A stretch of 64,000 bases of DNA from Mytilus trossulus (lineage: Eukaryota). The stretch is taken from NCBI RefSeq assembly GCF_036588685.1, contig NC_086380.1, positions 32,674,001-32,738,000 on the forward strand. Direction: 5' to 3'. The position numbers and the translations under genes were made by a program. Under the pieces are notes generated by a model. The model was given only the letters and a program-made list of their open reading frames with translations. It had not been told where the DNA came from and ran no database searches. Shown piece after piece: positions 5,602 through 60,831 of this stretch. Position 1 is the stretch's first letter, and each line of letters starts with the position of its first letter.

Positions 5602-5645
5602 ACGTCAGACGCGCGTTTCGTCTACATAAAACTCATCATTGACGC
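5602..5645 (-). ncRNA. Hammerhead ribozyme copy with a core mutation (CUGAUGA to AUGAUGA)
   Basis: Same family and flank as 50463-50506; all stems retained. Confidence 0.7.
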
Positions 5646-18600: not shown

Positions 18601-21600
18601 ATTTTTTCTGATTCAGTATTTATATTTTGTTCATCAATTACTGGTACTGATGGTGATTCACTACCAATGAATGGTGATACGGTAATTTTAATAACAGGTA
18701 CAGTCGTGTCTGCTATTTTAGTTGATTCAGTATTTATATTTTGTTCATCAATTATTGGTACTGATGGTGATTCACTACCAATGAATGGTGATACGGTAGT
18801 TTTTATTTCAGGTAAGATAGTGTCTGTTATATTAGTTGATTCAGTTTTTATATTTTGTTCATCCAAAGTTAACGATTCACTAGCAATAGATGGTGATAAG
18901 GTAGTCGTTATCATAGGTTTAGTAGCGTCTGTATGTTTTGATGTTTCGAGTGGCAGGTCATACTTTTCTGTATTTGTAATACCTTTTATCTCATACTGTG
19001 GAGTTTCATCAATCTTCTTAACTGTTGTTGTCTCATCAGCTGCTGGTATGATATCTACTTTATCTGGTGTGGCGGAAAACACTAAATCGACATTAACTGT
19101 TTCTGGAGACAACTCTTTAATAACGACCCCATCGACATCTTTAGATATCACGGTATGATCAATTGATGGAGATCCTTCCACTAGAGGTTTGTTGTTAGAT
19201 AGTAACTGTTCGTCGCCTATTTTAAAGCTGGTTGACTGCTCAGACATTGTCTGTTGACCTTCAGTTTCCATTGGGATTGTCGATTCAAGATTTGTAGTTT
19301 GGGTGAAGGATTTTTCCGAAATGTCCTTTTCCGCTGTGACCGGTATAATGCCGTCAGTTAATGTAGAAGTTTCTGACACCGTATCAGTTGCTTTATATTG
19401 TACCACAGGTACCTCTTTGATTAATACAGATGTGTCTGGCTGATCCAAACCTGTTTCAGTAGCAGTTTCGGATTGACTGGGCATATATACAACCACTCCC
19501 TCTTTACCTACGAGTTGATCTGAAGTCTGAACAGATTTTGTTTGATGACTTTTAGGTTGGCTTGACTTGTCTGTGAATGCCTCCTCAGTAACTTGCGAGA
19601 CAGCAAGGGTATTTTGTAGATTTTCTTTAGTACCTCCAAGCAGATCAGATTGTTGTGAATCTACAGTTTTAGATTCAAGAGATTGACCCAAATTACTTAC
19701 AGATGAAGTATCCGATTTATCCAAGGAATTTGTATGTATAACGCCAGAAGCTGCTACCTGTTCGCTTTTGAGTAAGTTGTCTTCATATAAGGTCGCTGGA
19801 ATAACAATAGCCTCAACATTTTGAGACTTTGTAATTGTACCTTCAGGTACTGTTGCATCCAATGTTTGTGCCTGATCGATTGAAATAGACTTGCTATCCA
19901 CAACTGCTTCAGGTTTTGTTGCCACAATGCTATCCAAAACTGTTTCGGTGTTTGTTGCTGCATTGCTATCAAAAACTGCATCAGCGTTTGTTGCAGCTTT
20001 GCTATCCACAACTGCTTCAGGTTTTGTTGCCACAATGCTATCCAAAACTGTTTCGGTGTTTGTTGCTGCATTGCTATCAAAAACTGCATCAGCGTTTGTT
20101 GCAGCTTTGCTATCCACAACTGCTTCAGGTTTTGTTGCCACAATGCTATCCAAAACTGTTTCGTTGTTTGTTGCTGCATTGCTATCAAAAACTGCATCAG
20201 CGTTTGTTGCAGTTTTGCTATCTACAACTGCTTCAGTCTTTTCTGCAACATTGCTATCCAAAATTGTTTCGGTGTTTGTTACTGGATTGATAACCAAAAC
20301 TGCTTCAGTCTTTGTTGCTGTATTGCCATCCACAACTGATTCAGTGTTTGTTGTTGCCTTGCTATCTAAACCTGCATCAGTAGTTGCTGTCTTGCCCACT
20401 AAAACTTCTCCAGTGTGTGTTAGTGCCATGCTATCAAAAACTGCTTCAGCGTTTGTGGCTGCATTGCTATCCAAAAGTGCTTCAGTGTTTGTGACTGCTG
20501 TGTTATCGACAACTGCTTCAGTATTTGGTATCGTCTTGCTTTCCAAACCTAATTCAGTTTTTGGTGCTGTCATGCTATCTAAAACTGCGCCGGTATTTGC
20601 TGTTGACATGCTATCTAATACTGCTCCAGTGTCTGTTGCTGTATAACTATCCAAAACTGCTTCATTGTTAACTGCTGTCTTGCCATCTAACACTGCTTTG
20701 TTATTTTCTGCTGCCGTGTTATTCAAAACTGCTTCGTTGTTTGCTGCTGCTGTATTATCCAGAATTGTTTCAGTGTTTACTGCTGTCTTACGATCTAAAA
20801 CTGCTTCATTGTTTACTGCTGTCTTACTATCTAAAACCGCTTCGTTATTTACTGCTGCCGTACTATCTAAAATTGATCCAGTGTTTGATGCTGTATTGCT
20901 ATCCAAAACAGTTTCAGTGTTTGGTGATGTCTTGCTATCTAAAACTTCAATGTTTGTTGCTGCATTGTTATTTAAAACTACTTCAGTGTTTGGTGATGTC
21001 TTGCTATCTAAAACTGTTTCCGTGTTTGTTCCTGCGTTTTTATCCAAAACTACTTCAGTGTTTGGTGATGTCTTGCTATCTAAAACTGTTTCCGTGTTTG
21101 TTCCTGCGTTTTTATCCAAAACTACTTCAGTGTTTGGTGATGTCTTGCTATCTAAAACTGTTTCCGTGTTTGTTGCTGCTTTTTTGTCCAAAACTACTTC
21201 AGTGTTTGGTGATGTCTTGCTATCTAAAACTGTTTCCGTGTTTGATCCTGCGTTTTTATCCAAAACTACTTCAGTGTTTGGTGATGTCTTGCTATCCAAA
21301 TCTTCTTCAGTGTTTGTTGCTGCTTTGTTATCTAATACTGCTTCTGTGTTTGTTGCTGCATTGGTATCAAATACTGCTTCAGTGTTTGTTACTACATTAC
21401 TATGAGGAATAGCTGTAGGTACATTCTCATTCAAACTGGCCCCTTCATTCACTGGTATGTGATCATTTAAAGAAGGGTTTTCCTCTATTGCTCCTTCTCT
21501 GGTAATACTTTGTACAGCATTTGCTGGCAAGTCTTCAAGTGGCATTGGAATAGATAATCCACCAGGCGCGATCGGAGCTCCTCCAACCGCCTTATCAGTT

Positions 21601-23345
21601 AACTGTTGTTCACTGATTGTTTGTTCTATCACGTCACTTACTATTGTCGTATCTTTATTCGGTTCTTGTACAACAGGTCCGCTTATTTCAGGTACACTGA
21701 TTTTTTCAGAGGTTATAGATTGATCAATCACGCCTTTGTCCAATGTTGTATCTTTATTTGATTCTTCTAAAACAGTTCCACTTGATCGAGGTGCACTGAT
21801 TGTTTCGAAGGTTTTAGATTGATCTATCAAGTCTTTGACCACTGGCTCTTTGTTAGTTCCAAATGGAGCGGCAATGTAGGTTTCAGGGGTTTTAGATGAT
21901 TCATTAACGTCATTTGCTAATTGTGTATCCTTGATAGGTCCCTCAATAGGGAAATCAATGTATGTTTGGTTGTTCATTTCAGAGGTTCCCGAATTTACAC
22001 TGCCCGTTGCCTTTGTGATTTCATTATTTTTCGAAACGGTTCCGGTAGTTGTTCTTTCTGTTTCACTACCAGTGGCTATTAATTCTGTCAAAACCTTATT
22101 TTCAACATTATTTCCTTCGATCGGATTTGTTTGCATTTCAGTCGTAGCTAATTCATTAGTGAATGCAGGTACATCTTTGGGTATATTCTGTTCATTATCT
22201 GACCTCGAAGGCTTGTTAGAATCGACAATGGATGAATCTGTTAAAGTCCCCGAATGTTTTGCAATGTTTGTCGCAAATAACATTTCTGTTACGGGTTCCT
22301 CAAGTGCTGTTCCTTTTAATGGTTCAAATGCTTTTGAGTCTACAGCTTGACTGATAAAAGACTTATCTGATTGTTCTGTATTTGATGTTGCTGGAATGCC
22401 TACCTCTGTTTTAATTGTACCATCTATAGGAATACCAACCACTTGAGGGTTGGTTTGAATTGTTGGTGTCTGTACAGATTCTGTGGTCGTCAAAGGAATT
22501 GGTGGAACTTCATTGTTAATTCTTTTGACATCAACGAGATATTCTGGACGTACATCAACCAGTTCGGATTTGCTGGTGACCTTTTCGTCTGTTGTCTTTT
22601 GTTCCTTATCACCCAAAAATTTCAAAGAATAAGTGTTATCCTGAGCAGCTACAATATTTTCTCTTGGAACAGGTTCCATAATAATATAATTATTATCAGT
22701 ATTTATATTGGAATCAACCCTTGACCCTGAACTTGCTCTACGGAAGTGTGACATCGGTATTTTGATACCAGTAGATAAACCAGTTTGTTTTGATAACCGA
22801 GACTGGTTGTCTTTTATAGCATGGGGTGAGTTATGATTCAGTTCAATTATTTGAGTTTCAGGTATAACTACTGGAGCATTAAGAACTTTTGGATTACTAT
22901 CTAGTACATCCATATTTACGGGTGTATACGGCACAGGAACAGCTGGTATTTCGTTGGCAGACTGTTCTATCTTTGAATTTGTCGCTTTGTCCGTATTGGT
23001 TTCAGTTTCTTTATAATGGAATGTTCCAGTGTCCATCTTGCCTAAAGAAAGAGATGGTTGCTTCTCACTGGCGCTAAACCCTGATTCTCTCATATTGTGT
23101 TGTTTCCGTCTTTGTGTAGGTTCTGTCTGTGATTGAGAGCTAACAGTACTTCCTGGGGTCGACGTGTTAGGGTCGGCAGTAGGTGTAGGCTGTGGCTCTG
23201 CCCATCCAGTTACCGGGTTAATGTCATTTGTAAGAGTGTCCCATGATTTTCCTTGAACTTGACCTTCACCTTGAACTAGACCTTCACCTTGACCAGATGT
23301 TTTGGTACTGAACGACACCAGCAGAAGAACAGGAATCACAATCAT
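12602..23345 (-). CDS. Secreted Pif/BMSP/LamG3-family shell-matrix-like protein, ~2316 aa; complement(join(12602..12661,13468..13550,13969..14059,14595..14944,15781..15945,16325..16525,16808..16999,17537..23345))
   Basis: Hydrophobic N-terminus MIVIPVLLLVSFS; 5.8-kb exon of T/E/D/S/V-rich repeats; three Cys-patterned exons (CDKLVQC..CPYGYFW..C; C..CRSYYRC..MCC..C..C; C..ACPEGTVFS..C) resembling ChtBD2/peritrophin-A; then LamG/ConA-like exons (AQFNGNG, LISNC, WNDLTYVYDG, IVIGGC..GYTGLIDS-IEVFSGCIP). All junctions are GT/AG and total 6951 nt in frame. Confidence 0.88.
16181..16222 (-). ncRNA. Degenerate hammerhead copy (45445 family), intronic
   Basis: GCATAA-CCGAAGA-GACActaatTGTC-GAAA-TGTGCAT; core U4 changed and 3' arm of stem I lost. 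Confidence 0.55.
18140..18910 (-). repeat. Coding tandem repeat, 114-nt/38-aa unit (DEQNINTESAKIADTTVPDINTTVSPFIGSESPSVPII), ~6.5 copies
   Basis: Seven DEQN starts; ttgttcatca recurs at 18171 and 18285. Confidence 0.95.
19890..21400 (-). repeat. Coding tandem repeat, 36-nt/12-aa unit (e.g. DSKTSPNTEVVL, DSNAATNTETVL), about 42 units, with 72-nt and 108-nt higher-order blocks
   Basis: Visible periodicity; gctatccaca recurs at 19893 and 20001 (108 nt); alternating DSKTSPNTEVVL/DKNAGTNTETVL dimers at ~20970-21310. Confidence 0.95.
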
Positions 23346-23720
23346 AGTGATGTCTACAACATAAAAAGAAATTTCATATAGTTACGACAAAATAACATGT
23401 TAAGAGAAAAAAAATGAAACTCTGCAATATTGACTTAGTTTTTTACCCTGAACATTGAGTGAATGAATGTCTGTTTTCTAAACATATTGATCATCCCCTA
23501 TCATCTTCATTTTCATTTTAAATAGCAATGCGAAATGACAAGAGGATTTATCAAGGCGGAAGTAGTTTTCGATGGTTAAATCTCGAAAATCTATTAGGAA
23601 GAAACAAATCAAGGTAACATTTACAGACTTATGAGTTGCGTGCACTTTAAGGTAGTTAAAAAGGATTGTTTAGTACCATGATGACTCGTTCGAGTATGCC
23701 ATACTTAAAAAGTGGATGGT

Positions 23721-34198: not shown

Positions 34199-37188
34199 AG
34201 TAGTTTGCAGGTACATTTGATTTTTTTATTTGAATGAAACAGGAACCTAGTTAGGGTGTGTCGTTGGCCGAAAATCAATGCTTTTGGTAGAAAAATAATT
34301 TAGAGAGGAAATGAGTCTTTGAAGCTAAGGTATACAGCCACATAAATATTTTAAATTATTTTTTAAGTTAAAAAATTGTAAGCTATTCAAGATGACGAAT
34401 TAGATCTTTTTTGAATTTCTAAATTTATGGATATGGATAATAAACCGAATATTGCTAATAACAAAAAAATATTGATTCCAAAATCCTCCCCAAAAACACA
34501 GACATATTCCACAAAAGACATATTTAATAAACATACGAAGAGGGATTTATTTTAAAAATTAAGACAACTACTTTTTATTTGATTGAGAAGTTTTGTTCAT
34601 AACATCTACATTTTGTACATACAAATACATGTAAATGTTTGTTTCTGAAACGTACTTTTCATTGTCAGTCAAAAGCTTACCCCGTTTTGACCCCATTTGT
34701 TATTACAGCAATGGAAGTCATGTGACTACCATATTTGGGCAGTTTTAGGGTTACTTTTTGTTCAACAAAATGAGTCCATTTCATAGAAAAGTCATATCAA
34801 ATGGAATCAAAGCATGATATACATTAAGTACAAGAAAACTGCGTATATACGTTTTAGAAGTTCTAACATAGATTTTTTTTTTGATTAAACGGCGTGCTGA
34901 AATATTATACGAAGCTTTCCCGACCTCTTCACATGTTGCGGCTATTTTTACCAATTAGGAAGTCGAAATTTCTTTCTTCACTCAAGAAAATATATGCTAT
35001 GTAATTTTTTTATTTTCCTCATTTTCCTCTTGGGTATGTTTTTCACACGCATTTTCCCGACTTTTTTCTTGTCCAATAGTGTGCTACCCTCCCAGTAGTC
35101 GCTGTGTCGGCATTGACCATGATTTTGTTATGTACTTTTTAATGAATTTTCAGCTGATAAAGTTGTAAAATATTTGTAAATTATATTCAAACGGGCTAAT
35201 TATTGTTACTTTTTTGTTTTTGATTCTAGTGTTTATTTTTTTCCCTTTTGAAACAATACTCACAATTGATCCCAACCGACCTACTGACCTAAGATGGTAA
35301 CTTGTCATGTAATTATTTTTAACATGACATACCTCTGACCATACGTAATGAAGGTATATCAATACATGCAAATCGAACTCGAAAAAAAAATACGTTATGT
35401 TTTGTTTTCATTGATTGCTAATGGTTCTATTTAACTATATCTAGGTCAAAATTTGAAAAAAAAGTCGACTAGTTCGCTTACGTAGGACTTCAGCATTGCG
35501 TCGTTTAAACACAATAATTGGATGCTCTTTCATATTTAATGTTTCGAAAATGAACTGATACATATATTTTGTTTTTGGACAAGGTCATGTTTTTCCATGA
35601 CTGTAAGTCGCGTCTTTATACAGCATCTATTGAATGTTGGATATGTACTGATTGATATTTTATACTTAGAAATATATTTTTTTTATTAGTTGTTATTGGT
35701 CTTGCGCTAGCTGTTAATAACTGCGAGTAATTTCAGATATGCATATAGTGTCTTTTTGTTGTTGTTGTTGATTTAGGGATGTATAAGTACCATGACACGT
35801 TCGGTCTTTGTTTTTGTAAATTGTTTTTCTGCTTTGTATCGATCCAATGAGTTGCGCCCTTTTTAACTGACTGATAGATGATCATAGTTATAGTTCGGTA
35901 CTATAATACCACCGTTGCAGGATTGGGGAGGGTTAGGCTCCTGCATATATGTTCCTGTACCAAGTCGTGTAATACAGTAGTCGTTTATGACTGTATATCA
36001 TATTTGTATTTCGTTCATTGTTTTTACATGAACAAGCCGTTAGTTTTCTCGTTTAAATTGTTTAACATTTACCATTTTGAGGCCTTTCATTACTGACTAT
36101 ACGGTATCATGATTTGTTTTTTATTATTGAAGGCCGTACGGGTGACCCATAGTTGTAAACTTCATTGTCATTTGGTCTGTCTAGTGGAGAGATTTCTTAT
36201 TGGCAATCATAACACATCTTCTTATTTTTTATATATACATATATAAAACATAACTATAAGTGAACTGTTGTAAAAATGAAAATAATTCACGAGGTGCATT
36301 TTTACTCAAAAACGATGAAAAAAAAAATAAACTGAGAAATTTAAAAAAAAGTTCAAACAAAATGTATGTTGCTAAACTCTTAATACTTTTAGTATAATAC
36401 AAAATATTGATAAAATTATAAGATTTTGTTTTCATATAATGTGCTTTGTTTCATTTAGAATATAGTGTGGCCATTGACTTACATTTTAAAATGCATTCCG
36501 TTATTCGCAGTATTCATATTTTTTTATCCTTCTTCCGGTCCAAAGATTACTTTCAATCTAGATTCCGTTTACTTGTTAATTCTAAAGCCAATTCTGTTTA
36601 TTCAATCAATCAGGGCCGATTCAAGGATCAAAATTAAGGGGTGTGTAATGGTCCGAAATCTTTTAAAATCAAGTCAAAAATGTGTTATGTGCGATCAAAA
36701 AGGCGTTCACCTTCTACGCGCCCCTGTGATCGCCATTGATACATTTTTATTTGGTACAAAAAGGTGAAATTGGAAGTAAAATGTTAAATCCCAACAAAAT
36801 TTGTTTTGAACATAATAGAAACTATATTAAGCGAATTGTTTAATCATCAAATTAAATCCAATTCTTGTAAAGACAATAGTTTTGACATTCTATGGTAATT
36901 CCGTTTAAATTTTAAAAGTCATTTACATATTACTGATGTCAATCGAGTCTTTTACTATCCTTTACAAACAATTCATGCAATAGAGGTCAACATTTAAAAC
37001 ACAACGACGTTTACTAAACATCATATGCCTTCATGCATAGCATAAAAGTAACGTTTAACTTTATAAAACATAAGTTTTAGCGGCAAGTTCCGTGAATTGT
37101 TCAGTTTCACAATACAAATTTGTTTATTTGATTCTCTAATAAATTAGACAGTTATTGCACGCACACTAAGAGACAGGGTAGCAGCACA

Positions 37189-39644: not shown

Positions 39645-41182
39645 GATTCTAATAGGACAAATAAGTTCATTCAAATACTGAAGCGAGGTGGGTATGCCGT
39701 GTGTGTAGCTGTTCTTTTTTACTCCTTGTTAGATATAGCTCAAATATTCTCATAAATCTTTAGCTTGCATTGATTATTTCGTAGATAACCGCTAGAAAAT
39801 ATATGTTTAATTCTCAAACCCAATATTTCCTATTTTTAATTTACATGTTTTCTCGTAAACTACCGTCAAATCCAAAATTGACATTTCGTAACGAAGGAGC
39901 TGTCATGTTGACCCGCTGAAATCAAATGGGAAAACAAAACAAAACCTACCTCATAATTACATTTTAATACAATATTATACGAACTTCGATGGGTACAAAA
40001 AAGTTTATATTTTTGTGACATTGACTAAATATTGTTTTTATACTGCAACTTAAATTAGTAATTGATAGCTTTTAAATCGTAACATAAATATCAAGCTTAT
40101 TTTCATCCCTTGATGAACCCCTGATTGTAGAGAAAGTGTTCCATGATGAAATTGACATTGCAAAAAATATAGCTGTGTTACTATATTTAGGAAATAAACA
40201 AAACTAGTGGCAATATATTAATTCTTTTTTATTATGCATCCGAATAAGAATAAAAGTTCTTTTGTCTTTTGTTTTATTACAATTTCTAATACAATAAAAT
40301 TGGCAAAGCGTTTGCAAAGTAGGTTCAAATACATGTGGATTTACGTGGGAGGTATATTGTAACATCCATTATAATGTATATCTCTGAGTCTGCGCTAAGT
40401 ATAGATATATCGAGATTTTTCACACAGTGAAAGAAGCACGTCATATTAGAATTGCCATTTCTTTTTCTCATCTTACTGAAAAATATTCATAATAAATGTA
40501 TAAATGAAGGTTAAATATAATTTTAATATCTCGTGTAGCTAACAATTAATCATGTTTTAATTAAAACATGTGTTTGTTTATGAAAATTTCCTGAATTACA
40601 ACAATGAACAATGACCACACATTCAACCTTCATGATTATTGTTAAATAAGTGTTTTTAAACATAAATACATTTAAAAGTATATTTCAAAATTAAAAAAAT
40701 AATTTGAGCCTTTAATTGACATTTCAATAGTTGCATGTTCAACCTTTGTTAAAGTTGTTATTTCGTTGTTTCAATACAACACCTTTTAAACTAAATGTGC
40801 CATTAAATACTGGTGCTTCATCTACATGTATCATCAAATAGCTAAAATATGGTAACTAATGTCTTATCTCCCATGACAAATACATGAATGGTTTTGACTC
40901 TACAAACAAAGCCCCCAAAATATTTTTTTTGGTTTAAATGAATAACATTGTGTGAGGTGTTTGATAAGGGAAATAAACAATCTAATGATATAACTTTCAA
41001 CAGGAAAAAAAGGTGTCTTCTGAATGATTTTTCATCAGGTATATCTATCTGTATGTTTTTCTGTATGTATTCTTCACCTCCAATATAGGGGATCAAGAGT
41101 ACCCTCATTAAACCCATAATCCACACATAACGATTCATACTGATTTTTGATTCTTGATTTTTATTCCCAGAGGTGAAGTTAT

Positions 41183-42148
41183 ATGCACAGTATGTCTGCA
41201 TGGCAAACAGTAGCTGGTTATAAATCTGCAAACAAAAAATCTACATCTAAACCTGGGAATTCATTGCTTACAGCAAAAGTGGATAAGGATAAACCACCTA
41301 AAAAACGCACCCATTCAGACGTATCTAGTGACTCCAATAATAGTGCAGACTTATCTAGTATAAAGAACTTTCAAAAAGATATCGATGACATTAAATCAAA
41401 ACTTGAAGGTGTGCCTAGGAGGGAGGAACTTGACAGAGTAACAAAGGATCTGGTAAAAGCTAGTGATCTTGAGCAAGTAGTTACTGTAATTGTTAAAAAT
41501 CTGATGAACGAATTTGAAATAACATTGCAACACAAGATTGATGAAAAAGCTGAAGAAATTAAACATGAAATGCAAAAGCAATTGGAAGTTTTAGTTCTAG
41601 AAAACGAAGATTTAAAGAAACAGATGTCAGCTTTACAGTATCCAAATTCAACAATTAGAAGAGACCTTAATAGAACAAGTCGACTTTCAAAACAAGCTGA
41701 TATAAGCAGCAATTATAACGAGCAGTATTCAAGAAAAAATAACATTAAAATACTTAATTTTCCAAGAAAGGAACAACAAGATTTAAGAAAGGACTTCATG
41801 GAATTTGTCAAAAATGAACTAAATGTTCAATTAGAAGAAAGAGACGTGGTTGCAATCCACCGAATACCGTCTCAAAAGGCTGGGCCCTATCCAGTTATTG
41901 TTAAACTATTCAACAGTGATGTTAAACGTAAGATTATGAGATGTAGAAAAGAATTGACTAGTAAGATTAAGTTTGTGGATAACGTTACTCAAAGAAATAT
42001 GGGCCTAATTAAGAGACTAAGAGAAACGGAAGAATTTGAATCTGTCTGGTATTATAATTGTGGAATTTATGGTAGAACGTTTTCAGGACTTCAACTTAAA
42101 TTTGGACTATATGACGACATTCACTACAGGCTACAACAAGGAAAATAG
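41183..42148 (+). CDS. L1/Tx1-type non-LTR retrotransposon ORF1-like protein (coiled coil plus RRM-like region)
   Basis: Uninterrupted 321 aa; basic N-terminus, heptad-rich middle, motifs NEQYSRKNNIKILN, AIHRIP, PVIVKL typical of LINE ORF1p. Confidence 0.8.
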   Translation: MHSMSAWQTVAGYKSANKKSTSKPGNSLLTAKVDKDKPPKKRTHSDVSSDSNNSADLSSIKNFQKDIDDIKSKLEGVPRREELDRVTKDLVKASDLEQVVTVIVKNLMNEFEITLQHKIDEKAEEIKHEMQKQLEVLVLENEDLKKQMSALQYPNSTIRRDLNRTSRLSKQADISSNYNEQYSRKNNIKILNFPRKEQQDLRKDFMEFVKNELNVQLEERDVVAIHRIPSQKAGPYPVIVKLFNSDVKRKIMRCRKELTSKIKFVDNVTQRNMGLIKRLRETEEFESVWYYNCGIYGRTFSGLQLKFGLYDDIHYRLQQGK

Positions 42149-45152: not shown

Positions 45153-45815
45153 AACTTGATCTGTGTTTTGTGGCAATAAGCATTGTGTGTAAGTTTCCTA
45201 ACATTCGTTTGAGGCAAACTAAAGTTAAAGAATGGAAACCTTTTTTTTTGGTATTTTTTCCATTTTCAAAGGCACATACCTCTAGAACGATTACAGTGAC
45301 GTTTCCAAAATTCAAGTTTGATCTATGTTTTGTTTTTTAAATAAGCAAAAACCTTTCACGGATTTGGCTATACTTTTTGGACCTTTTGGATTATAGCTCT
45401 TCATCTTTTATATAAGCTTTGGATTTCAAATATTTTGGCCACGAGCATCACTGAAGAGACATGTATTGTCGAAATGCGCATCTGGTGCAAGAAAATTGGT
45501 ACCGTTAATTTTATTGTATAAGTTTCAGAAAACTTGGTTGATGCAAACTTACATTTTGAAAGTAACAGATCTAGAACGGACGCTAATTTTTTTGCAAATT
45601 TTCCATTTATAAAGGGACATTACTATATACCGTTTTAAGTGACGCCACAAAAAACGAACTTGATCTGTGTTTTGTAGTTACATGCATGTATACGCATTTT
45701 GTATAAGTTTCATAACACTTGGTTTAGGCAAATTCAAATTAAAGAACGGAAACCAATTTCGGACGTACGTACAGACGGAAAAGGGTAAAACTTAATATGG
45801 CGGCGGGGGCATATT
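45153..45815 (+). mobile_element. Helentron/HINE-like element with internal tandem units, interrupted by a hammerhead-bearing insertion
   Basis: Repeated a(a/g)(c/t)ttgatct(g/a)tgttttgt...aagtttc..aac..ttggtt..ggcaaa units; ends ggacgtacgtacagacgga...ggcgggggcata. Confidence 0.55.
45445..45488 (+). ncRNA. Minimal type-I hammerhead ribozyme motif, intact core
   Basis: GCATCA-CTGAAGA-GACA(tgtat)TGTC-GAAA-TGCGCA-TC-TGGTGC: CUGANGA and GAAA cores, stems I and II pair, stem III is the palindrome ATGCGCAT; predicted cleavage after 45482. Confidence 0.85.
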
Positions 45816-46563
45816 CAAAATAAAAATAATAACATCTATGTATAAATCAAATGTTTAGGTGTTTTTTTACTGCATATACATTTGCAAAAGTGAACTTCGC
45901 ATTACAAATGATAGAGTCTTGGTATACTGTTTATGATGCTGCTGCATGATGAAATAACACTGAAGTACAGCCACTGATATTAGAGATTCAAAATCAACAG
46001 CTTAATTTGTTGCAACCACTAATGAATCATTTATATGATTGCTTGACTGATTTGTTGCCAAGTTGAGGCTTATAACAAGTATATCCCCTCTACATATTCA
46101 TATGTCTAACCCATAGTCAGAAACCTCGAAATTCGACCAAGGCCTTTGATAGAAGCCAGAAAAAGTTGGAGGACGTTTTTTTTCTTATACAATGTTTGAT
46201 TATAATTTCGAAACTTGACATCACAAAAAAATGATAAAACAAAATTGTTTTTTTATTGTCATAAAGAGCCGTAACATATAAAAGTTTGTCTTAAAAAAAA
46301 GCAAGATCAGAATTTATAACAGTGATTAATAAAAAAAAAATATAAAAGTAATATCAAAACATCATCGACGCAACACGTTTTTTTCGACAACCTGTTTAGA
46401 ATACATTGATTATTTTACACTTTTCAAAATGTACAATCGCCAATGACCCTGTTCTTTTAAATACGAATCATTCTGTCAACGTACATCTCATTTTATCCGT
46501 CTTCACGCGGTCATTAGCAGACTAAGGTGTCTGTCCAAGGTATAAATTTGAAAATGTACTGGA

Positions 46564-49461
46564 CTATTTTGTCTCGGAGATATTTGCAGTCCGTTGTTTA
46601 TAGTAAACTTTAACTTCTAGAGCAACATAAAGTACAGACGCTACAGACAATAACGTAATAACAATGATAAGTTTTGTCTTTACACATAACACAGTACTGA
46701 TAGCGAAATACACAGTAAAACTGGTCGCCTTCCAGAAGTGGTAGTTGGCAAATGCCGGCTCTGTATTCTCTGGGTACAGGTATCCAATCAGTGCTAAAGA
46801 ATATAAAATAAAAACAACTACAGTAGATCAATTTTAGAAAAAATGTCTGGTAAGACAAGTTAACTTATGTTGAGCTTGTTTTCTAGTATTGCTTTTTCAT
46901 TTTCTATTTCCAGTATTTTGTGTTACATGTAACGTTACTTTTTATGTATTGATTTTTATGTAACTTTCATTTGTTACGAGATTGCTGTGAATTTCTGACG
47001 ACCTGGTATGACGACCTACGGCCTAGTCTGGGAACTGATTAGAACAGTTTGAGATTGTATGTATGTCCCGGTCCTAAGTCCAGAACCTGTAATTGTGGTT
47101 GTCGTGTGTTTTGAATTTTGTTCATTATTTGTGACACACATAAGTCTGTTAGTTTTTTTCATTACAGCAGATTTTAGTGAGTATGTAGCTAGTGGTAATA
47201 TCTTTGGTTAGGTTGCTTGTTAGCTGAACCGTGAAGTCATTGTTAGGTTAGATAAACTACCCTCCTTTAATAGTAGACTAGCCCAACAGATAACCAATCT
47301 ATCTCTCTGTAGGACATTTAAAAGGAGGGTAGTATACCTTACCTAACAATGACTTCACGGTTCAGCTAACAAGCAAGCAAACCAATGATATTACCATTAG
47401 CTACATACTGACTGAAATCTGCTGTAAATGGTTTTACATTTGTTATTTTGGGGCCTTTTATAAGCGACTTTGCTCATTGCTGAAGGTTGTACGGTGTCCT
47501 ATAGTTGTTTATTTCTGTGTCATTTTGGTCTCTTGTGAAGAGTTTTTTCATTGGTAGTCATACCATATCTTCTTTTATTTTATTTACAGTAAGAATAACA
47601 ACTCACCATTTGATTGCGTCTGCCATATTCCTTCGGCGACACCCCATATAACTACCATTATAAACAAATAAGGCAAGTCACTTCTCCCTTGTGGATAAAA
47701 CACAAACATGGCAACAAATACGGACATTTGTATAATAATTGCTACTGCAAACAAAACCTGTCTCCCGGTGTATTTAGCTAGCCGTGACGTCACCAAAGCT
47801 GACACAGTTGTTGATCCTCCATACGCCGCCATGATAAAGCCAACCATTTTGATTCCAATTGGACAGCTAACGTAAGACTAAAAATATAAGATAATCAAAG
47901 TTTTTGTAAGCATTGAAGGGTAACAAGAATTGCTTTAATTTATCTGTGGGAAGTAAAGTCAAACATTGCATCTTATAAAGCATTGGTTGTTCAATGAAGT
48001 TAATTTAACTAAAATTCTGGACAAAGGAAGATAACTCAAATTTTTGAAGATGACTTTAACACTGGCATCATTGATATTTTTTTGAACAGATTCATGTACT
48101 AGATCCCTACACCTTGCTCCTTTTAATTTTGACAACTGAGTATAACATTATTTTATTACATGGGTAAGTATAGTATGTTTCATTGAATTTTTTTTGTAAA
48201 TGTTCATGGACAGGACGGATAGGATGTATAGAAAGATATGATCGTTCCATATATTTTGTGTATATAAAAGATAGTGATTTTATGCAACCTTTACCCCAAA
48301 GAATGTCATGTAAAAGCTACATATTAATAAAATTAAATTTATGATCATGTGTATACCATGGAATTGTATACATAGATAGACAAGCAATTTTTCTAGAAAT
48401 ACCAAAGAATTGTGTGGGCTACTTAAATTTCTGCTTTTCTTGTATAGGACTTTATATGTGGGTTACAAATTTTATGCTATGGGCTACCATTGCCAAAGTC
48501 TTAATTTCTATCCCTGCAACAACTATAAATTCATCAAGTTAATCATTCTCATCAATCATACCTTCGTAAAATCTGTCCACAGAACGGCCTGCTCCATCGC
48601 CATTAAAGCTATAAACGGTACCAATAACAACATCTTCATATCACCGAACGTAAAGAAACATGACGTCACTGATTCTTTAATGGAAGAAGACTTTGTCCAC
48701 TGACTCTTCGGTAAAGGAGATAAAAACGTTGCAGTCAAGATGAGTCCAATGACATCAAAAACAAGAAAAACGCCAAGCATAGTGTACACGACATCTGAAG
48801 ATGGCTGGTCCAACAGAGTAGCATTTCCGGTGATTACAGGACAATCATTGACACCACATGTCGTAGCTATAGAGGAAGCATTAGAACTGTGGCTTGCACT
48901 TTTATATAAAACGGCAGACGACACTATATTTCCACTGATTTGTGTTAGTTCATATATTGTAAAGAAGATTCCGTTTAGTCTACTGAGCAACACGTGCGCA
49001 TCTTTACCTGTGCGATCTGCAAGAGAATAAGCATTTCTAGTTATGTAAATACTTTGCGCTGTCCATAGAGGACCGGAAACCAATCCAAGTAAAATAGATG
49101 AAGGAATCAAAGTTCCAAATGTTGGATAAAAGTTGCTTAATGTGTAGACTATATGAAGAATCCACGCAATAACAAGTGCCAACTTCCCGCCAATAACCTT
49201 TAATACAGTTGGCGCCAATACAGCTGAAATGATAATAAATCCATATAAGCACGACAATGACGTCACTCCTAGTCCTGCTTCCTGATTCAAACTGCTCTGC
49301 AAGTTTTGTATCGCTAAATATGCTGTAAACACAAAGAAAAATGAAGCTGACAGGATGTAAGTATTGCGAATTTCATGACCATTGACGCTGTCACTCCTTT
49401 TGGCGCTAAAACACAAACATATCTCCTCGAGATTCTCGGTTTCATTCCGTCGTTGTGACAT
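46564..49461 (-). CDS. UNC93A: UNC-93-like MFS membrane protein, ~466 aa; complement(join(46564..46793,47607..47877,48562..49461))
   Basis: FVFTAYLAIQNLQSSLN..GLGVTSL, NFYP, GPLWTAQS, DFTK|SYVSCPIG, WGVAEGIWQTQ, EPAFANYHFW; GT/AG junctions in frame (1401 nt). Confidence 0.9.
47165..47424. mobile_element. Foldback MITE with TA TSD, in the last intron of the minus-strand UNC-93 gene
   Basis: TA|cagcagatttt..gttagctgaaccgtgaagtcattgttagg and reverse complement ..ctgctg|TA; arms ~100 bp. Confidence 0.88.
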
Positions 49462-50462
49462 TGTACTATATGACACATGTATGATAGTGACCTATCATTT
49501 ACCTACTGCATCGTTTAGTGTGGACAATGCTAAAATTAGATTTACATAATTATTTAGAAAAACTTTACGTGTATGATCAATATTATCTATCTTAAGTTTC
49601 AAACCATGTGACAGGTTGTTAATAACAGCTGACACAAATGTGATTTAATTAATATACAGTTAATTCTAGCTGTAAATACTTCATTAAATATAAACTTTTT
49701 AGTTATTTTTGTTCAGAATAGTGTACACACAGTGCGTAAATTATGTACTTCAAGGTTATAGATACATGCCTGATACACATAATTCTTGTTCCAGTTACAA
49801 ATGTATCATTGGGGTTATTGAGGACTCTGTCCATATGACGTTATTTTAGTAAGGTCGTCTAATAGGTCAGGCTTCTGATATGATTGTTTCATTTCAATCA
49901 TTAAATTAGTAGGTGCAGTCGTACTTAACCATACACTATCTCAATTCTTCAATTAAAGTTTATTGCAATCTTTGTGACCTAATTGTGAGTCCTTTTTTAA
50001 TTCTTTTAAAACTATACATATTTTTATCTGTCTTTCTGAACTTGTGATTAAAGAGGGTCATGGATAGAAGAGTGACAAAGAAAACATAATTTTGTGGATA
50101 TGTTTACAATGATGATGGCCATGGACGTTGATGTTTTGGTGTTTAATTCCGTATGGGTGACGGTAAAAAGATCGAAAAGGGATGCAAAAGATAGTAAATG
50201 GACATAACAACAAGTAATATAAAAAAAAAGATAAGTCGGAAATAAACTGAAAACGCAATGGCAAAAAAAAGGCAGCAGTCCTTTTGCGACAATTACTGTT
50301 TTTCAGGGATATCATTTGCGCCAAATTTTGTTTTGCAAATGTATCAATTGCGCCAATATTCGGAAGTCATTTGCGCCAATTTATATATATGTTTTCTTAT
50401 TTTTGGCTTAAAAAGTATCATAAATAAACTCATCATAGATACCTGGACTAAATTTAGTATAT

Positions 50463-50506
50463 ACGCCAGACGCGCGTTTCGTCTACAAAAGACTCATCAG
50501 TGACGC
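50463..50506 (-). ncRNA. Minimal type-I hammerhead ribozyme motif, intact core
   Basis: Reverse strand GCGTCA-CTGATGA-GTCT(tttgt)AGAC-GAAA-CGCGCG-TC-TGGCGT; stem III palindrome ACGCGCGT; predicted cleavage between 50469 and 50468. Confidence 0.85.
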
Positions 50507-53050
50507 CCGAATCCAAAAAAGTTAAAAAGGCCAAATAAAGTACGAAGTTGAAGAGCATTGAGGACCAAAACTCCTAAAAGTTATGTTCGGAGGTATTTAA
50601 CCATGAAGATGAGCATCTGGAGATAAATGACTAAAAATGCATTAGACAGTCAATGTACATAGAGAGAGTAAAACTTTGCTGAATATTTGATAAAGATATG
50701 TCAATAGAGAAGAAAATGAGTTGTTGCATGTTAATGTCTAATTAATTTAAATGTATTAAAGCTTTTGCTGATTATGTTTTAGACACACATGCTAATGACA
50801 CAGTGCTTTAATTGTTCCAACGATGCATATGGACTTTAAAGTGAAGTTACAAGCTACTTCATACATTAAATTAGAGGGTACTCATGAGTAGCAGTAAGAA
50901 GAAGATATATTTCAGAAAAGGAAATATTTGCCGTGTTAACTGCTGGTTCCAAGTCAGAATAAAAGAGTAGGGACGTCATTTTTCTTCTAATTGACGCAAG
51001 TGATAACCATGTAATTTTTTAAAACATGTGGCTCAAACATAGCATTGGAGAAAAAAAGTTGTGGCGCAAAAGGACGCATTTTTGGCGCAAACCGATCTCA
51101 ACCAGGTTTTAAAACGACAACAACCACTCACCAATCACAACAGTGTTTAAAACGAAACAATTTGAAAACTGCGTTCCCTTATTTAAATGATGTTATATTA
51201 TGCGTATATTTTTAAAAATCATTTTCCATTGGAGTTTCAAGAATTCGTGCCTAAATACATTTACAAATGAAGTGCATATACACTTATACCATACTGATAT
51301 CTGTCTGCTCTTTAACTTTTTTTGCTGTCTTCTTTTTCTGAAAAACATATAAAGATTTGCTGCACATTCATGTAATTAGGAAAACCTTATGGAGAGAAAA
51401 ATGGTACAAGGTCACCTCGAGAGACAATAACAATCAAAACCAAGAAGCTAAGTAAACAGAGACTCACAAAAACCAAAGGAATTTTAAATTAACAGTTATA
51501 AAAACTAATTAAGAAACAACACGAACTCCACTTAAAACCGGGAGTGAAATCATGTGCTCCGGAAGGGAAGCATTTCCTGCACCGTATACAACGGCACCCG
51601 CCGTGCTATTTCTTTGTTCAGTCCCATAATGATGGAAGGTTATTATGACTGAGGAAAGCGTTACATGTAAATGTAATTAAAGAAGACAATAATAAACAGT
51701 TATTTTAAATATGTAACTATGCATTAAAGTTCAAAACATATTATCCGAGGTATGAAGATCAGCTCATTTTTTTATTGCCCGAAGCCAACGGCTTACCTGA
51801 TACATACTGAGTTAGTTCTTACAAATTCTTAGAAATAAAACACATGAAAGTAACAGCTATATTAATTATAATATGTGCTTTTGGTAACAATATTCTCTGC
51901 GAACATTCAGCAAAATTTTGATCACATTTTTTTTTATATTTCTAGCGTCCCTATTCTCAAGTAAATCATTTAAGTCTCCATAATCAACATTTAAAAAAAC
52001 GCTCCATCGCGGAAGTTATTTGCAGACGATCAAAACAATTAACCTAAAAACGCTTAAATGACCGAATTTGATTGGACAACATGAATACCTTTCAACTAAT
52101 CAGATTTCAAAATAAGAGGTCATAACTGGTCAGTGCACACATGCGCAATAGAACGATAATTTCTAGTGCAATAGACATTGGAACAAAAACTGGCAGAGAC
52201 ATAGCAAATAATATAATAGAAATATTAATAAAACAGTAAAATACTCTTTATTAGATAATATTTGCACTGCAGGAATTCATAGAAAGATAAACTAGAAAGA
52301 ATATTAAATTTAATCTTTAAAAACGATCTTCTTATCTGTTTAATTTCAACAGCTACATGTATATCTGCAGAGATTATCAAAGAGAAACTAAACGAAAGCG
52401 AATAATTTATAACCTAATCCATATATAAATTGGGAACTTCATGTATATAAATAAGAAAAAAAGGAAAAAATTGCCAATGAGACAGATATACAAAAACTCC
52501 AAAGGACAAAGATGACTAACAATTACCACGAAAACTTCATCAATAAGCAAAAACCATTGTAAGGTAGGATACACTTGGTCTCCGTAGGACAAAACGTGAA
52601 TCAATTAAACAGAGAAAACCAACGGCATTATTTACATGTATGTTTATATATCTCTAACAATAAACGATAAACAATAATAGTGGACGACAACCAACGACAG
52701 CATGTTCTATTAGTTACAATGTGTGTATATATCATGAATATCTTAACTCCTATACAGTTTTAGGAATGGCATTAGTTAAAAGGGACCGTATATATTAAAT
52801 ATTAGGCTAGTGGGTGTATTATTTTGATATTAATATGTTAGTAACAGTTTCGTTTCGCCAACACAACAGATGAAGAAAAATTTAAATTGTGATGAACGAC
52901 TAAATATTTCTTGCAGAAAACACAACCAAGCTAACAATGGGTTATTAGCTGCATTTTTTGTATAGACCAATGGCATTAGATTGAATATTTGATCATTTTG
53001 ATTATTAAGTCCGCATGTTTAACAAGATAGTCAGTAATAAAGATAAATTC

Positions 53051-55347: not shown

Positions 55348-55551
55348 ATGCACACAGAAGATGGATAATCGATCTCACTTTTATTTATATTCATAATGTC
55401 TTACGATTGTGAAACATGCCGTACATAGTTTAAAATATGCTGTGATAAGAAACACATCAGGCACATGTGTATACATCGACCTATACATTGACTAACTGTA
55501 CTTTAAAAGTGGACTACGGCCGAACCGGACCATTGATTGTAAGTAGAGAAA

Positions 55552-58500
55552 ATGAGAAATTTCAGAATGAAAATATATTGTGCGTTTCGCGGTGGTGTTA
55601 AATCGGACAAAATAGAAAGTCCCTTACAATCAACTATCGTTATATCCATTGCTTTTTTCTTTGTGTTTTCTGCCTTCATGTCGATCCAGGCATTACAGAA
55701 TAGTTTGAACATGGAAGCAGGACTTGGAGTTAAGTCTCTTGCATGTTTATACAGCGCTAGTATAGTGTCGTCACTACTTGCTCCGTTCTGTATTAAAGTT
55801 CTTGGTGGAAAAATTACAGTGGTGGCAGCGTTTTCTTGCCATGCTATATATGTAATGAGTAACTTCTATCCACGGTTTTACACTTTGATTCCAACGTCAA
55901 TACTTTTAGGATTAGTTACCGGTCCACTATGGACTGCGCAGAATCTGTTTATCACTGCTAGTGCCACGAGAATTGCAGAGAAAAGAAAGAAAAACTTGAA
56001 AGATGTTCTGAACCGACACAACGGAATATTTTTCTCTATTCATGGAGTGGCTTTCGGCATTGGAAGTGTCGTCTCTTCTATAATTTTTCACACAGATATA
56101 ACTTTACCATCCGGAAACGTTTCCAAATTGTGTGGCATTTTAGAATGTGACAGCTACCTACAACCAAACACCTCTAATATATCTTTTATAAGTACAAATA
56201 GACCATCATCTCAGTTACTTCATCAACTCTTTAGTGTTTACCTAGCATTTGACATGATTGGTGTTGTCATAGCAATGGTACTATTACCAACATTACCAGT
56301 CAGTGATTGGATAAAAAAGAAAAGTGCTTTAAAGTCTGTCTATTCCATGTTTTCATCTTTATCGAACGTTAAATTGGTGTTATTTCTACCCTTAACTATA
56401 ATGACTAGCGTACAACGCTTTGTTTTATATGCGGATTTTACAAAAGTAAGTATTACGAGATATTTTAATTAAATTATGCAAGTGCACATACGAGTGCACG
56501 AGGACTAGACATATATTGATGACTAGGTGAGAAAATATCAACTAATTTATATGCATTGAAGATAATTGATTAATGAGGGATGGGATCCCGCTTTGAAAAA
56601 CTTCAAAAATGGCACATAAAATTGAGAATGGAAATGGGGAATGTGTCAAAGAGACAAAATTCCGACTATAGAAAAAACAACAGCAGAAGGTCACCAACAG
56701 GTCTTCAATGTAGCGAGAAATTCCTGCACCCGGAGGCGTCCTTCAACTGGCCCCTAAACAAATATATACTAGTTCAGTGATAATGAACGCCATACTAATT
56801 TCCAAATTGTACACAAGAAACTAAAATTAAAAGAATACAAGACTAACAAAGGTCGAAGGCTCCTGACTTGGGACAGGCGCAAAAATGCGGCATGTTTGTT
56901 TCAGTCAATGCATTTTGTTAATCATATTATAATGTAAAATGGATGGGAAATCTACAAAACACAACATTGAACACTAAAGACTGAACAACACGAATCCTAT
57001 TAAAACCTATGATTACCCCCAGGTGCTCAGCAAGGGTAAATTGCTATTACAGGCGTTTTTAGCATGTCCATATTTATGTAACGAAAACTTAATTCATCGT
57101 GCTCTCTGTTGCACATGCATATTCGCTTAATATAAATTTGTGTATATACGTATGTTCCATATTCTCTTTGTTGTATACTCAAAGACTTTAAAAACGCAAC
57201 ACACATTTTGTTTATTTCAATTTTATGCTTTTATCAAATCAGGGTTACATTATGACTTTACAATATTGACTTTATTAACGAAAGAAAAACATGATGTTAA
57301 GTCGTTGTCGCGTGTTGATGTGGTTGGTGAATGTTTCTCTCATCTCGACTTTTTTTTATATATTATAGTTTAGACCGTTTTTTTTCTTGTTTGAATGGTT
57401 TTACACTAGTCATTTTTGGGGGCCCTTTATAGCTTGCAGTTCGGTGTAATCCAATATTCCGTGTTGAAGACGGTGCTTCGACCTATAATGACTTATTGCT
57501 ACAAATTGTGACTTGGATGGAGAGTTGTCTCATTGGCACTCATACCACATCTTCCTATGTTTCATATGACTTTAATTATTTATGCATTAGCTTTTAAAGA
57601 CATGTATGCAGACTTTGGCAAAACTACGTTCAATGTAAACAACTTTTCACGAAAATACAATGTTTCCTCAACCCACGAAAATTGATATATACGAAAATAA
57701 ATGAATCCACAAAATTCACGTTTGTTACAAACTTGCACATAAGAATAAGGAGGTGTGGTATGAATATCAATAAGATAACTATCAACCAGAGTTCGAATTA
57801 AGTGGATGGTAGCAATTTTTATGCTACCGTATAATTGTATGTACATTGTTTTATAGGCGTACATCACATGCCCATTCAGTATTGGATGGGTAGGATTAGT
57901 TATGGCAAGTTATGCATTAACAAATACAATTAGTCTACAAATTATACATGGAATAGCAAAGTTGATCAAACGTAAAATTCTAGTAGCATTCGCAGCCATG
58001 GTTAACATAGCGGAAATGACGTTTTGGTTATTTTGGAACCCAACAGCCGATCACCTTCCTTTAGTATTTGTATCAGTCATTTTATGGGGAATGACAGACG
58101 CAATATGGAAACTTGAAATATTTGGTAAGTTATATTAATTCGATTTACTATAACACCCCTACTATATGGACACAAAAAATGGCAATGTTTTTTCGAAAGT
58201 ATGCTGGCCAAAAACATTCGGAGATTAATAATTTTTTACTAAATTGTTCAAAAGATTATTTTTTTCTTCTGTTAAATCATTTACACACAAATGCTCTACA
58301 AATCGACGAATATAATGCAGTGTCCTACCTGATTTCGTTGCCTAGAAGAATATTCATTTGTCAATATAAACAGATGTTGTATGTTTGCCGATGAGACAAA
58401 AATCCTCTAGATACCAAAATGACGTAGGTCTAAGCAACTACTAGTCACCGTACGGCTTTCACAAAGAAGCAACACTCATACCATGTCAACGATGTCATTA

Positions 58501-60831
58501 ATTTTTAAAGTTATCTTCAATTTTGTTTTACGTTCAGCGTCAAATAGTGCATGCATGTTCTGGACAAGTACAAAAAATGTACAAGTCAACAATTAAATAA
58601 TACAACGTTCAGGTCCTGCAATAGATATCGTCTTGAATGAATAAATTGTCACTGAAAAATGAGGGTATACTGGATAGGGAAAGAAATTTAGCCTTGCAGT
58701 AGGCCACCTACCGACCAGTAAAGAGTCGCGGCAGGATTTTATAAGGGAGTTACCATTTGATTTTTATGGGGGTCTAGGATGAAAAATTTTGTCCTGCTTT
58801 TTTTTTAAAGTTGTAATCTCTGTCCTGCCTTTTTATTGTTTACTCTATTCGGTCCTGCCTTTTTATTTTTTACTCTATTCGGTCCTGCCTTTTTATTTTT
58901 TACTCTATTCGGTCCTGCCTTTTTTTTACTAGTTTATCCTGACTTTTTTTACACAAATTGTCATCCTGCCTTTTTTTTTTTACCAAGTTGCTCATCCTGC
59001 ACTTTTTTTTTTTACTAAAAACTCCTGTCCTGCTTATTTTTTTCAAATTTCATCCTAGCCCCCCATAAAAATCAAATGGTAGCTCCCTAACGTGCAACAA
59101 GCGTGAAACACAAGTTACACATTAGGCACTAAGTGATATTTCTCGTACAGCCACAAACGGCCACCCTGCCTCGCTGCAAAGGTGTTACCACCGACTGCAT
59201 TTGTCATTCATTCTTATGATTATTCAGTTTGGGTAATTTTTGGATGAAAACGAAAAAAATGCGTCCGGATATTGTTTCCGTCATCAGACCGTGTTTAAAG
59301 TAAATGACTAGACTTTCGATTTAAACTTTTAAACATAATTTTCAGAATTACTCGGAAACAGGACAATTATTATCGCGTTATTCTACATGTATATACTATG
59401 ATTATACTCCTTTGCTATAATATATAGAGACTCTCTATATAATATAGCAGTGATCGCCGCGGAGAAGAAACATGGAATTGATAGTAAATAGAAAATACAC
59501 TTTATTTATAATATATGTATGTTAATAGATGTTCATATACAGTAACGCGAAAATCATGGAATTTTACAGAAAATAATTTTTTTAACGGACTGTGGAAAAA
59601 AAGGAGAGGGCTTAAAATATTGTCCTGTCTCCACTGAGTACCCATGACTTTTGATACCTTTTTTGAAATTCTCCAGACATAAATTTTTTTTTAATACTTG
59701 TATCTTTAATTTTTTTCTGTTATGAATATCCTATTTTGTCGAGACTTCGACTTTAGTCGAAAAAGCGAAACAAAGCGATCCTACATTCCGTCGTCGTCGG
59801 CGGTGACGACGTCCACAAATATTCTCTCTGAAGATAGTTTTTGAAATTTGAAATTTTAATAACTTTCTTAAACTATACTGGATTTCTACAAACTTGAACA
59901 GAAGCTTGTTTATGATCATAAGATAGTATCCAGAGGTAAATTTTGTAAAAATAAAATTCAATATTTTCCGTATTTAACTTTTAAATAGACTTAGTTTTTC
60001 TGCTGGGAAACATTACATTCACTCTGTGGTTAAACTTTTTAAAATTTAGATAACTTTCTTAAACTATCCTTGGTTTGCACCAAACTTGGACAGAAGCTAG
60101 TTTATGATCATAAGACAGTATATACAAGTAAAATTTGTAAAACAATAAATCCATTTTTTCCGTATTTTACTTTTAAATGGACTTAGATTTTCTTCCAGTT
60201 AACATTACATACAGTCTGCAGTTAAAGTTTTTAAAGCATTTACTATCCTGGATTTTTACCAAACTTGGACAGAAGTTTCTTACAATCAAAAGATAGTATC
60301 AAGAGGAATATTTTTATTGATTTTTTGCTCATTTTTGTTGAGCCTGCGAATTACAGAAAAAGTAGGCGAAACACTGGATACCGCGGAACCCTTACAAATT
60401 TGTTTTCTTACAATTTCTTAATTAGATATAGGAAGATGTGGTGTGAGTGCCAATGAGACAACTCTCCATCCAAATAACAATTTAAAAATTAAACCATTAT
60501 AGGTTAAAGTACGGCCTTCAAGACTGTTTCATTAATTACTGGTTTATTTTTTACAGGTACTATACCAGTACTGTTTTCAACAAGGAAGGAACCAGCTTTC
60601 GCCAATGTTCATTTTTGGGGATCTTTGAGTAGTGCAATCTATTTTGGAACAGCAAGCTATCTTTGTGTCTTTACGAAACTTTTAGTGTGTATTGCTTTAA
60701 TGATTATATCAATGCTGCTATATCTAATATTACAAATAAAACTGTCCAGGGAACAGTCACCAGACAGACCTACAGAGCAGGAAATCAGCATCCAAGAGAA
60801 GGAACAATTAAACAACACGTCTGCAGATTGA
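55552..60831 (+). CDS. UNC93A: UNC-93-like MFS membrane protein, divergent paralogue, ~478 aa; join(55552..56445,57857..58124,60557..60831)
   Basis: FVFSAFMSIQALQNSLN, NFYP, GPLWTAQN, ADFTK|AYITCP, EPAFANVHFW; same intron positions and phases as the minus-strand copy (1437 nt). Confidence 0.88.
56615..56890 (+). repeat. High-copy interspersed repeat A (also ~3690-3815, ~10220-10390, ~26815-26910, ~29570-29725, all on -)
   Basis: Shared aattgagaatggaaatggggaatgtgtcaaagagacaa...ggtcttcaatg.agcgagaaa...ctggcccctaaacaaatatatactagttc. Confidence 0.8.
58745..59087. mobile_element. PIF/Harbinger-type MITE, TAA TSD, with internal 30-bp tandem repeat
   Basis: TAA|gggagttaccatttgatttttatgggg...ccccataaaaatcaaatggtagctccc|TAA; internal (tcctgcctttttattttttactctattcgg)n. 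Confidence 0.88.
59733..60398 (+). mobile_element. Helentron-associated (HINE/pearl-like) element with ~190-bp internal tandem units
   Basis: 5' ttttgtcgagacttcgac and 3' ttttgttgagcctgcga related termini, a (cgt)n microsatellite, ~2.5 copies of taactttcttaaactat..aaacttggacagaag..gatagtat. Confidence 0.65.
60425..60522 (+). repeat. High-copy interspersed repeat B (also ~30920, 31290, 42920, 44550, 58360 on +; ~32745, 36125, 47470, 57465, 61700 on -)
   Basis: Shared agatgtggtatgattgccaatgagacaactctcca...cgtacggccttcaaca. Confidence 0.8.

Follow-up and report, generated by a model that had tools for sequence, protein, structure and literature searches.

Two predicted hammerhead ribozymes either side of a mussel UNC-93-like gene lie in truncated copies of retrozyme-type repeats

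Why should two hammerhead ribozymes with intact cores stand on either side of a single gene? The question arises in a 64,000-nucleotide stretch of the Mytilus trossulus genome (assembly GCF_036588685.1, contig NC_086380.1, positions 32,674,001 to 32,738,000; hereafter the window, in whose own numbering coordinates are given), where an earlier note, made from the letters alone, had described one hammerhead on each side of a minus-strand UNC-93-like gene and had proposed that short ribozyme-bearing retroelements are dispersed here. Our answer, which we hold with high confidence, is that each hammerhead lies in a 5'-truncated copy of one of two related mussel repeats, both non-coding and high-copy and likely the retrozymes already described; the two copies are independent and were likely retrotransposed to these places, with no role for UNC-93. 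What was observed is real but already familiar, namely mussel repeats of the retrozyme type in truncated form. Its useful part is the anatomy of the copies, in which a fixed 3' end beside a conserved hairpin domain gives a lead on how retrozymes are mobilised.

Both predicted hammerheads are present in the sequence. A stem-and-core descriptor scan of both strands finds exactly two strict type I motifs in the window, hammerhead A at 45445-45488 (+) and hammerhead B at 50463-50506 (-), and recovers for each the intact CUGANGA, GAAA and UC cores and the stems that had been reported. The predicted cleavage sites read from the sequence, 45482/45483 for A and 50469/50468 for B, agree with those proposed before. 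Each motif has a stem I of 6 bp, a stem II of 4 bp closed by a loop of 5 nt, and a palindrome of 8 nt that spans A15.1 to U16.1; judged by sequence, both belong to the type I structural class (CUGANGA, GAAA and UH core, stems I to III, stem I open). Such motifs do not readily arise by chance: among 200 block-wise dinucleotide shuffles, none contained one with a palindromic stem III, a stem I of at least 5 bp and a stem II of at least 3 bp, and a looser descriptor gave a mean of 0.03 matches per shuffle (maximum 2).

Copies found outside the window, numbered by locus (L001 and so on), connect the two motifs to longer units. L003 holds a tandem array of family B with a hammerhead spacing of 355 bp, and L007 holds one of family A, of ~1.35 units, with a spacing of 350 bp. 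The two units have 39% GC and are 70% identical to each other. They are non-coding, the longest open reading frames (ORFs) starting with ATG reaching 29 and 53 amino acids in the L003 and L007 units, and at the family level they have the properties of retrozymes without long terminal repeats (non-LTR retrozymes), namely a type I hammerhead in head-to-tail units of 150-450 bp, no coding capacity and a GC content below 50%. Neither an LTR nor a primer-binding site nor a polypurine tract was noticed in the units, in which no search aimed at them was made. The repeat family is very large: in DNA run X1 the summed contig depth over the two window fragments is 1.3 and 2.8 million, compared with 37-60 in single-copy bins, and runs X7 and X6 give similar values, so that in all three DNA runs the depth lies four to five orders of magnitude above single-copy bins, a ratio not to be read as a number of copies. 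Scans by pattern gave no matches in viral contigs or in prokaryote genome contigs. On an unrelated contig, L004, two hammerhead fragments (639-682 on the plus and 1497-1540 on the minus strand) form a convergent pair ~800 bp apart, and such pairs are therefore common.

The two families were also said to differ by compensatory changes in all three stems. We aligned 14 hammerhead copies, 12 of them distinct; of the 12 rows other than the two strict window motifs, eight had been retrieved by a pattern derived from hammerheads A and B themselves. In this alignment 96.4% of cells pair, and four of the 14 stem pairs are changed on both sides, one in stem I, two in stem II and one in stem III. The changes are real, because A and B are homologous over the whole unit, and they do touch every stem, but all four amount to a single difference between family A and family B, that is, to one comparison and not twelve, and the number of double-sided pairs was equalled or exceeded in 65 of 500 shuffles.

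Neither window motif belongs to a tandem array. The fragment that carries hammerhead A, A1 (45352-45515, +), is 5'-truncated, extends from -130 to +33 around the cleavage site and stops just before the position of a conserved hairpin domain described below. It is 98% identical to the L007 tandem unit over 164-169 nt, and in DNA runs X1 and X6 loose ends at 45352 run on into an L007-type unit. At the other side, 21 contigs of run X16 depart from the window at 45515 (+33) into dissimilar sequence (agreement 0.44). Read by eye, A1 interrupts one unit of a short host repeat. B1 (50421-50582, -), also 5'-truncated, extends from about -114 to +47 and shares 85% identity with the L003 tandem unit and 89% with L002; with L001, L002 and one L004 copy it makes up a subfamily, B', that has a different tail. 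Contigs of 356 and 488 nt with the B' segment occur in a run guessed to be RNA, although contigs cannot show circles, strand or origin. The host of B1 appears to be a repeat resembling a miniature inverted-repeat transposable element (MITE), with approximate ends at 50255 and 51100, raised depth, and subterminal inverted arms at 50278-50291/51062-51075 and 50315-50334/51051-51070. Contigs that join 50420 directly to 50582, a form without B1, are present in DNA runs X1, X7 and X6, which come from three studies.

No second unit was found beside A1 or B1, which are single fragments of 164 and ~162 bp; the window locus lacks the two or more consecutive units of a complete retrozyme, and both are derived fragments. 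Around A1, B1 and the further copy B2, possible target-site duplications consist of 4-6 nt matches, none flush with both ends, and the junctions of B1 show no duplication beyond an ambiguous TA. A1 and B1 are independent insertions; each entered another repeat, and the copy numbers of their families are very high. The proposal of dispersed, short, non-coding retroelement copies that bear ribozymes and come from two families is right. The data show tandem units, truncated copies at dispersed places and forms without insert.

Three more copies in the window had been overlooked, at 5602-5645 (-), ~16170-16229 (-) and ~2352-2492 (-). The first is the hammerhead of B2 (5571-5651, -), a family B fragment matched by Rfam family RF00163 and predicted to be inactive from a core change, C3 to A. 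The second, A2 (16169-16229, -), is a decayed family A fragment with a core change and a ~10-nt loss that removes the cleavage site. It lies in an intron of a chitin-binding gene with a CBM_14 exon, on the same strand. The third, B3 (2352-2492, -), is a heavily decayed family B fragment (nhmmer E 2e-5; covariance model E 0.06). A weak match at 35070-35180 (+; nhmmer E 0.002) may be a decayed interior piece of a family B unit and has no hammerhead. A2 is the only clearly intronic copy on the sense strand, and its cleavage site is lost, as selection against cutting of the pre-mRNA would predict, in this single case. We gave up the idea that all decayed copies are intronic and in sense orientation: the minus-strand chitin-binding gene has its last identified exon near 13460, so that A2 alone is clearly intronic.

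The copies share a well-defined 3' end. Among 15 listed copies, three continue into another unit and 12 are terminal, and in this small sample 11 of the 12 terminal copies end +33 to +49 past the cleavage site, the twelfth being too decayed to place. Their 5' ends, other than contig ends, are scattered from -39 to -197. This combination of a fixed 3' end, a short tail and truncation on the 5' side is a trait of Penelope-like elements, here found by a search blind to copies that end at the cut; the Penelope tail measures 30-40 bp (PMC8557442). The end points of families A and B coincide in the alignment of the two units, directly before an 82-nt, GC-rich domain (L007:862-943 and L003:525-607, minus strand). 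No other part of the unit is as well conserved: families A and B share 89% identity here, compared with 55-72% for the rest. The domain folds as two hairpins (z = -4.2). Among three sequences, four of its 31 pairs are changed on both sides, including in the UUCG hairpin, and five pairs are broken in one copy. Rfam has no matching family for the domain in L003 or L007. A match to it with three mismatches at +50 after A1 is the flanking host repeat and was discarded.

Copies that span the cleavage site need an uncut or circular template, since cutting at both ribozymes gives a linear monomer that stops at this site. With this in mind we tentatively suggest, giving the idea a real but minority chance, that the hairpin domain is a conserved docking site at which a Penelope reverse transcriptase lands; the enzyme would start at the AC-rich edge of the domain on circular or uncut RNA and thereby fix the 3' ends of the insertions. 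A close parallel is Poseidon of Anolis (PMC11167929, Frangieh et al. 2024), whose insertions also end at a fixed site downstream of the cut and enter AT-rich targets. Its enzyme takes uncut RNA and initiates internally, at an AC-rich stem-loop that lies downstream of the hammerhead, needs the downstream RNA, and so sets the ends of genomic copies. However, Poseidon encodes a reverse transcriptase and an endonuclease, and starts ~85-92 nt past the cut within its ORF, whereas the mussel copies end at 33-49 nt in a non-coding unit and suggest such a start through their ends only. According to a 2020 review (PMC7761336), animal retrozymes have no conserved motif that indicates the mobilising element. 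A fixed 3' end with its hairpin domain would be one: if the suggestion is right, the domain is the missing motif that names the autonomous partner of retrozymes, and the template spans the ribozyme junction. A fixed 3' end for retrozymes was not met in the portions of the literature searched, the supplements of which may contain it.

How do these families relate to known systems? In Mytilus galloprovincialis ~5000 type I hammerheads have been counted, in two similar families with 350-390 bp repeats, together with a 353-nt monomer, the clone Mg353, and abundant circular RNAs (PMC7229834, Cervera and de la Pena 2020), an account with which the preprint of that paper agrees. Hammerheads counted in thousands, of which one was assayed in 2020 (PMC7229834), make such ribozymes ordinary for a mussel genome. 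Our families resemble those non-LTR retrozymes in genus, in comprising two type I families, and in their tandem, non-coding units of 350 and 355 bp with GC below 50%. The A1 and B1 copies differ from them, each being a lone fragment shorter than half a unit and not in tandem, and fixed 3' ends and a conserved hairpin domain are not described in the available text of PMC7229834. The A and B families are likely the described Mytilus retrozymes.

The earlier note had called the hammerheads minimal. This class does not fit. In the minimal hammerheads of Penelope elements helix II measures 7-8 bp and helix I 4-5 bp, a bulge separates positions 9 and 10.1, and helix III is very short or absent (PMC4209133, Cervera and de la Pena 2014). 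A and B share with them the type I topology, a palindromic stem III region and many dispersed single copies, but their helix II has 4 bp and their helix I 6 bp, the bulge is absent, and a palindromic loop of 4 nt closes a helix III of 2 bp. Their geometry is that given in the same source for canonical metazoan type I motifs, in which helix I measures 6 bp and helix II 4 bp, and helix III is short and palindromic. Core and topology also equal those of RF00163 (Hammerhead_1, type I), and family B has the consensus stem III.

Cleavage as dimers, also proposed before, is possible. Two-molecule folding gives a palindrome-paired dimer for A but a dimer of another, non-hammerhead form for B, in models that ignore tertiary contacts. 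Dimers may not be needed: a mussel retrozyme clone cleaved at ~0.1 per min (PMC7229834), and most invertebrate type I motifs reportedly cleave as monomers (review, PMC7761336). The two motifs lie on opposite strands, so they cannot pair in one transcript or excise a circle, and, judged by eye, the palindromes of A and B would pair with one mismatch and one wobble; a cis dimer or circle from these two members of different families was rejected. An intact-looking core is in any case no proof of activity, since eight of nine tested elements in vertebrates showed no cleavage (10.64898/2026.07.22.740005).

Taken together, a plausible history begins with read-through RNA of a tandem array, which would be cut at each hammerhead into RNAs of unit length that are ligated into circles; RNA cleavage and circles have been demonstrated in M. 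galloprovincialis (PMC7229834), and Penelope-like elements have been proposed as the mobilising partner of mussel retrozymes (PMC7229834). A borrowed reverse transcriptase, likely Penelope-like, would then copy the uncut or circular RNA; its fixed internal starting point would be 33-49 nt past the cut, as the copy ends suggest. Starting inside the unit would put the hammerhead near the 3' end of each new copy. An early stop would be usual and would leave fragments such as A1 and B1, and sometimes more than one unit would be copied, as in L007. A1 and B1 are dead ends, with one ribozyme each and on opposite strands, that could still cut a passing transcript once.

Several observations pull against this account. 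The RF00163 gathering score of 34 bits is reached by neither motif: B narrowly misses it with 32.5 bits (E 3e-4), A is not listed by the Rfam search at E<=1, and the best L003 copy scores 33.3 bits. The monomeric hammerhead fold takes up a share of only 1.5e-4 of the ViennaRNA ensemble for A and below 1e-5 for B. Whole units folded as circles are not unusually stable (z -0.2 and -1.9), compared with the highly self-paired circles published. The outside copies come from one metagenome scan with the hammerhead pattern, which yielded eight loci, a small number, and this pattern demanded two bases past the cleavage site, so that copies ending at the cut were undetectable. Two fragments, L001 1358-1421 and window 35070-35180, lack the tail. 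The raised depth suggests that the contigs without B1 are probably other copies of the MITE-like repeat rather than the same locus. Finally, the match to the described retrozymes is by description and not by sequence.

The best surviving alternative is that the fragments are the 5'-truncated 3' ends, or solo pseudo-LTRs, of autonomous Penelope-like elements and not copies of a separate 350-bp retrozyme. A fixed 3' end, a variable 5' end, a short tail, AT-rich targets and no clear target duplication would all be expected from such an origin, and a fragment of 130 nt cannot reveal its template. In vertebrates, moreover, retrozymes have been linked to Penelope pseudo-LTRs, to which those of Xenopus are related, and solo monomers are evenly spread along chromosomes (10.64898/2026.07.22.740005). 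We nevertheless consider this origin unlikely. The same sequence forms the head-to-tail non-coding units of L003 and L007, and the stem geometry is the canonical one and not the minimal one of Penelope. The long ORFs near both hammerheads are UNC-93 exons, with no adjoining reverse transcriptase and GIY-YIG domain, and neither family was found in the 21 of 102 window ORFs that were scanned. Distinctly less probable still is spread at the DNA level, by unequal exchange within satellites or by carriage inside mobile repeats, and not through RNA. The location of A1 and B1 inside other repeats and the tandem form of the families would suit it, but the insert is missing from other copies of the host repeat, and DNA exchange should not produce common 3' ends together with scattered 5' ends.

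What of the position around UNC-93? The gene (46564-49461, -) has three coding exons (49461-48562, 47877-47607 and ~46793-46564; PF05978 and tblastn), which are joined in a spliced contig of run X16, and the first exon shares 95-96% identity with M. galloprovincialis proteins, a level that places the host in the genus Mytilus without fixing the species. An AATAAA at 46252-46257 (-) is its likely poly(A) signal. A1 is antisense to the gene, and B1 is in sense orientation about 1.0 kb upstream of the ATG. That the hammerheads flank UNC-93 is therefore true by coordinates, but no sign of function accompanies it, and the two are independent insertions from very high-copy families. Given three decayed copies and one weak fragment elsewhere in the window the flanking is unremarkable, and we regard it as likely due to chance. 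Least probable of all, and very hard to credit, is a co-option in which one or both ribozymes would insulate or trim the transcripts of UNC-93, B1 cutting read-through RNA and A1 antisense RNA: both cores are intact while three copies far from UNC-93 have decayed, and A1 and B1 each lie within about 1.1 kb of its coding region, but A1 is 98% identical to an unrelated array copy and thus simply young, it lies in antisense about 750 bp beyond the AATAAA, both fragments sit inside other repeats, chance would put copies this close on both sides of about one gene in 900 (a rough Poisson estimate at the window density of two intact copies per 64 kb), and the sampled RNA contig extends upstream only to 49541.

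A few contigs (runs X1, X7 and X6) join 45515 to 50422, so that a family A copy and an inverted B' copy meet at their 3' ends. These joints are probably tail-to-tail insertions at other loci. A 4.9-kb deletion allele lacking UNC-93 is a less likely interpretation and was not adopted; the short side covers 23-25 letters, and there are several such contigs per run.

The neighbourhood contains further features. A second UNC-93-like gene at 55543-60831 (+) stands head to head with the first and has the same three-exon layout, its first exon being ~40% identical. In the first gene's second intron, at 47221-47366, a long inverted repeat of high copy number by depth is the source of weak mir-7385 matches in Rfam and is likely a MITE. 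An intronless ORF of 323 amino acids at 41177-42148 (+) has a coiled-coil-like middle and no Pfam match; it resembles the ORF1 protein of LINE elements. The large minus-strand gene at ~13460-23381 has a repeat-rich exon of 1950 amino acids (36- and 114-bp tandem repeats) together with CBM_14 and laminin-G-like exons, and resembles mollusc shell-matrix proteins.

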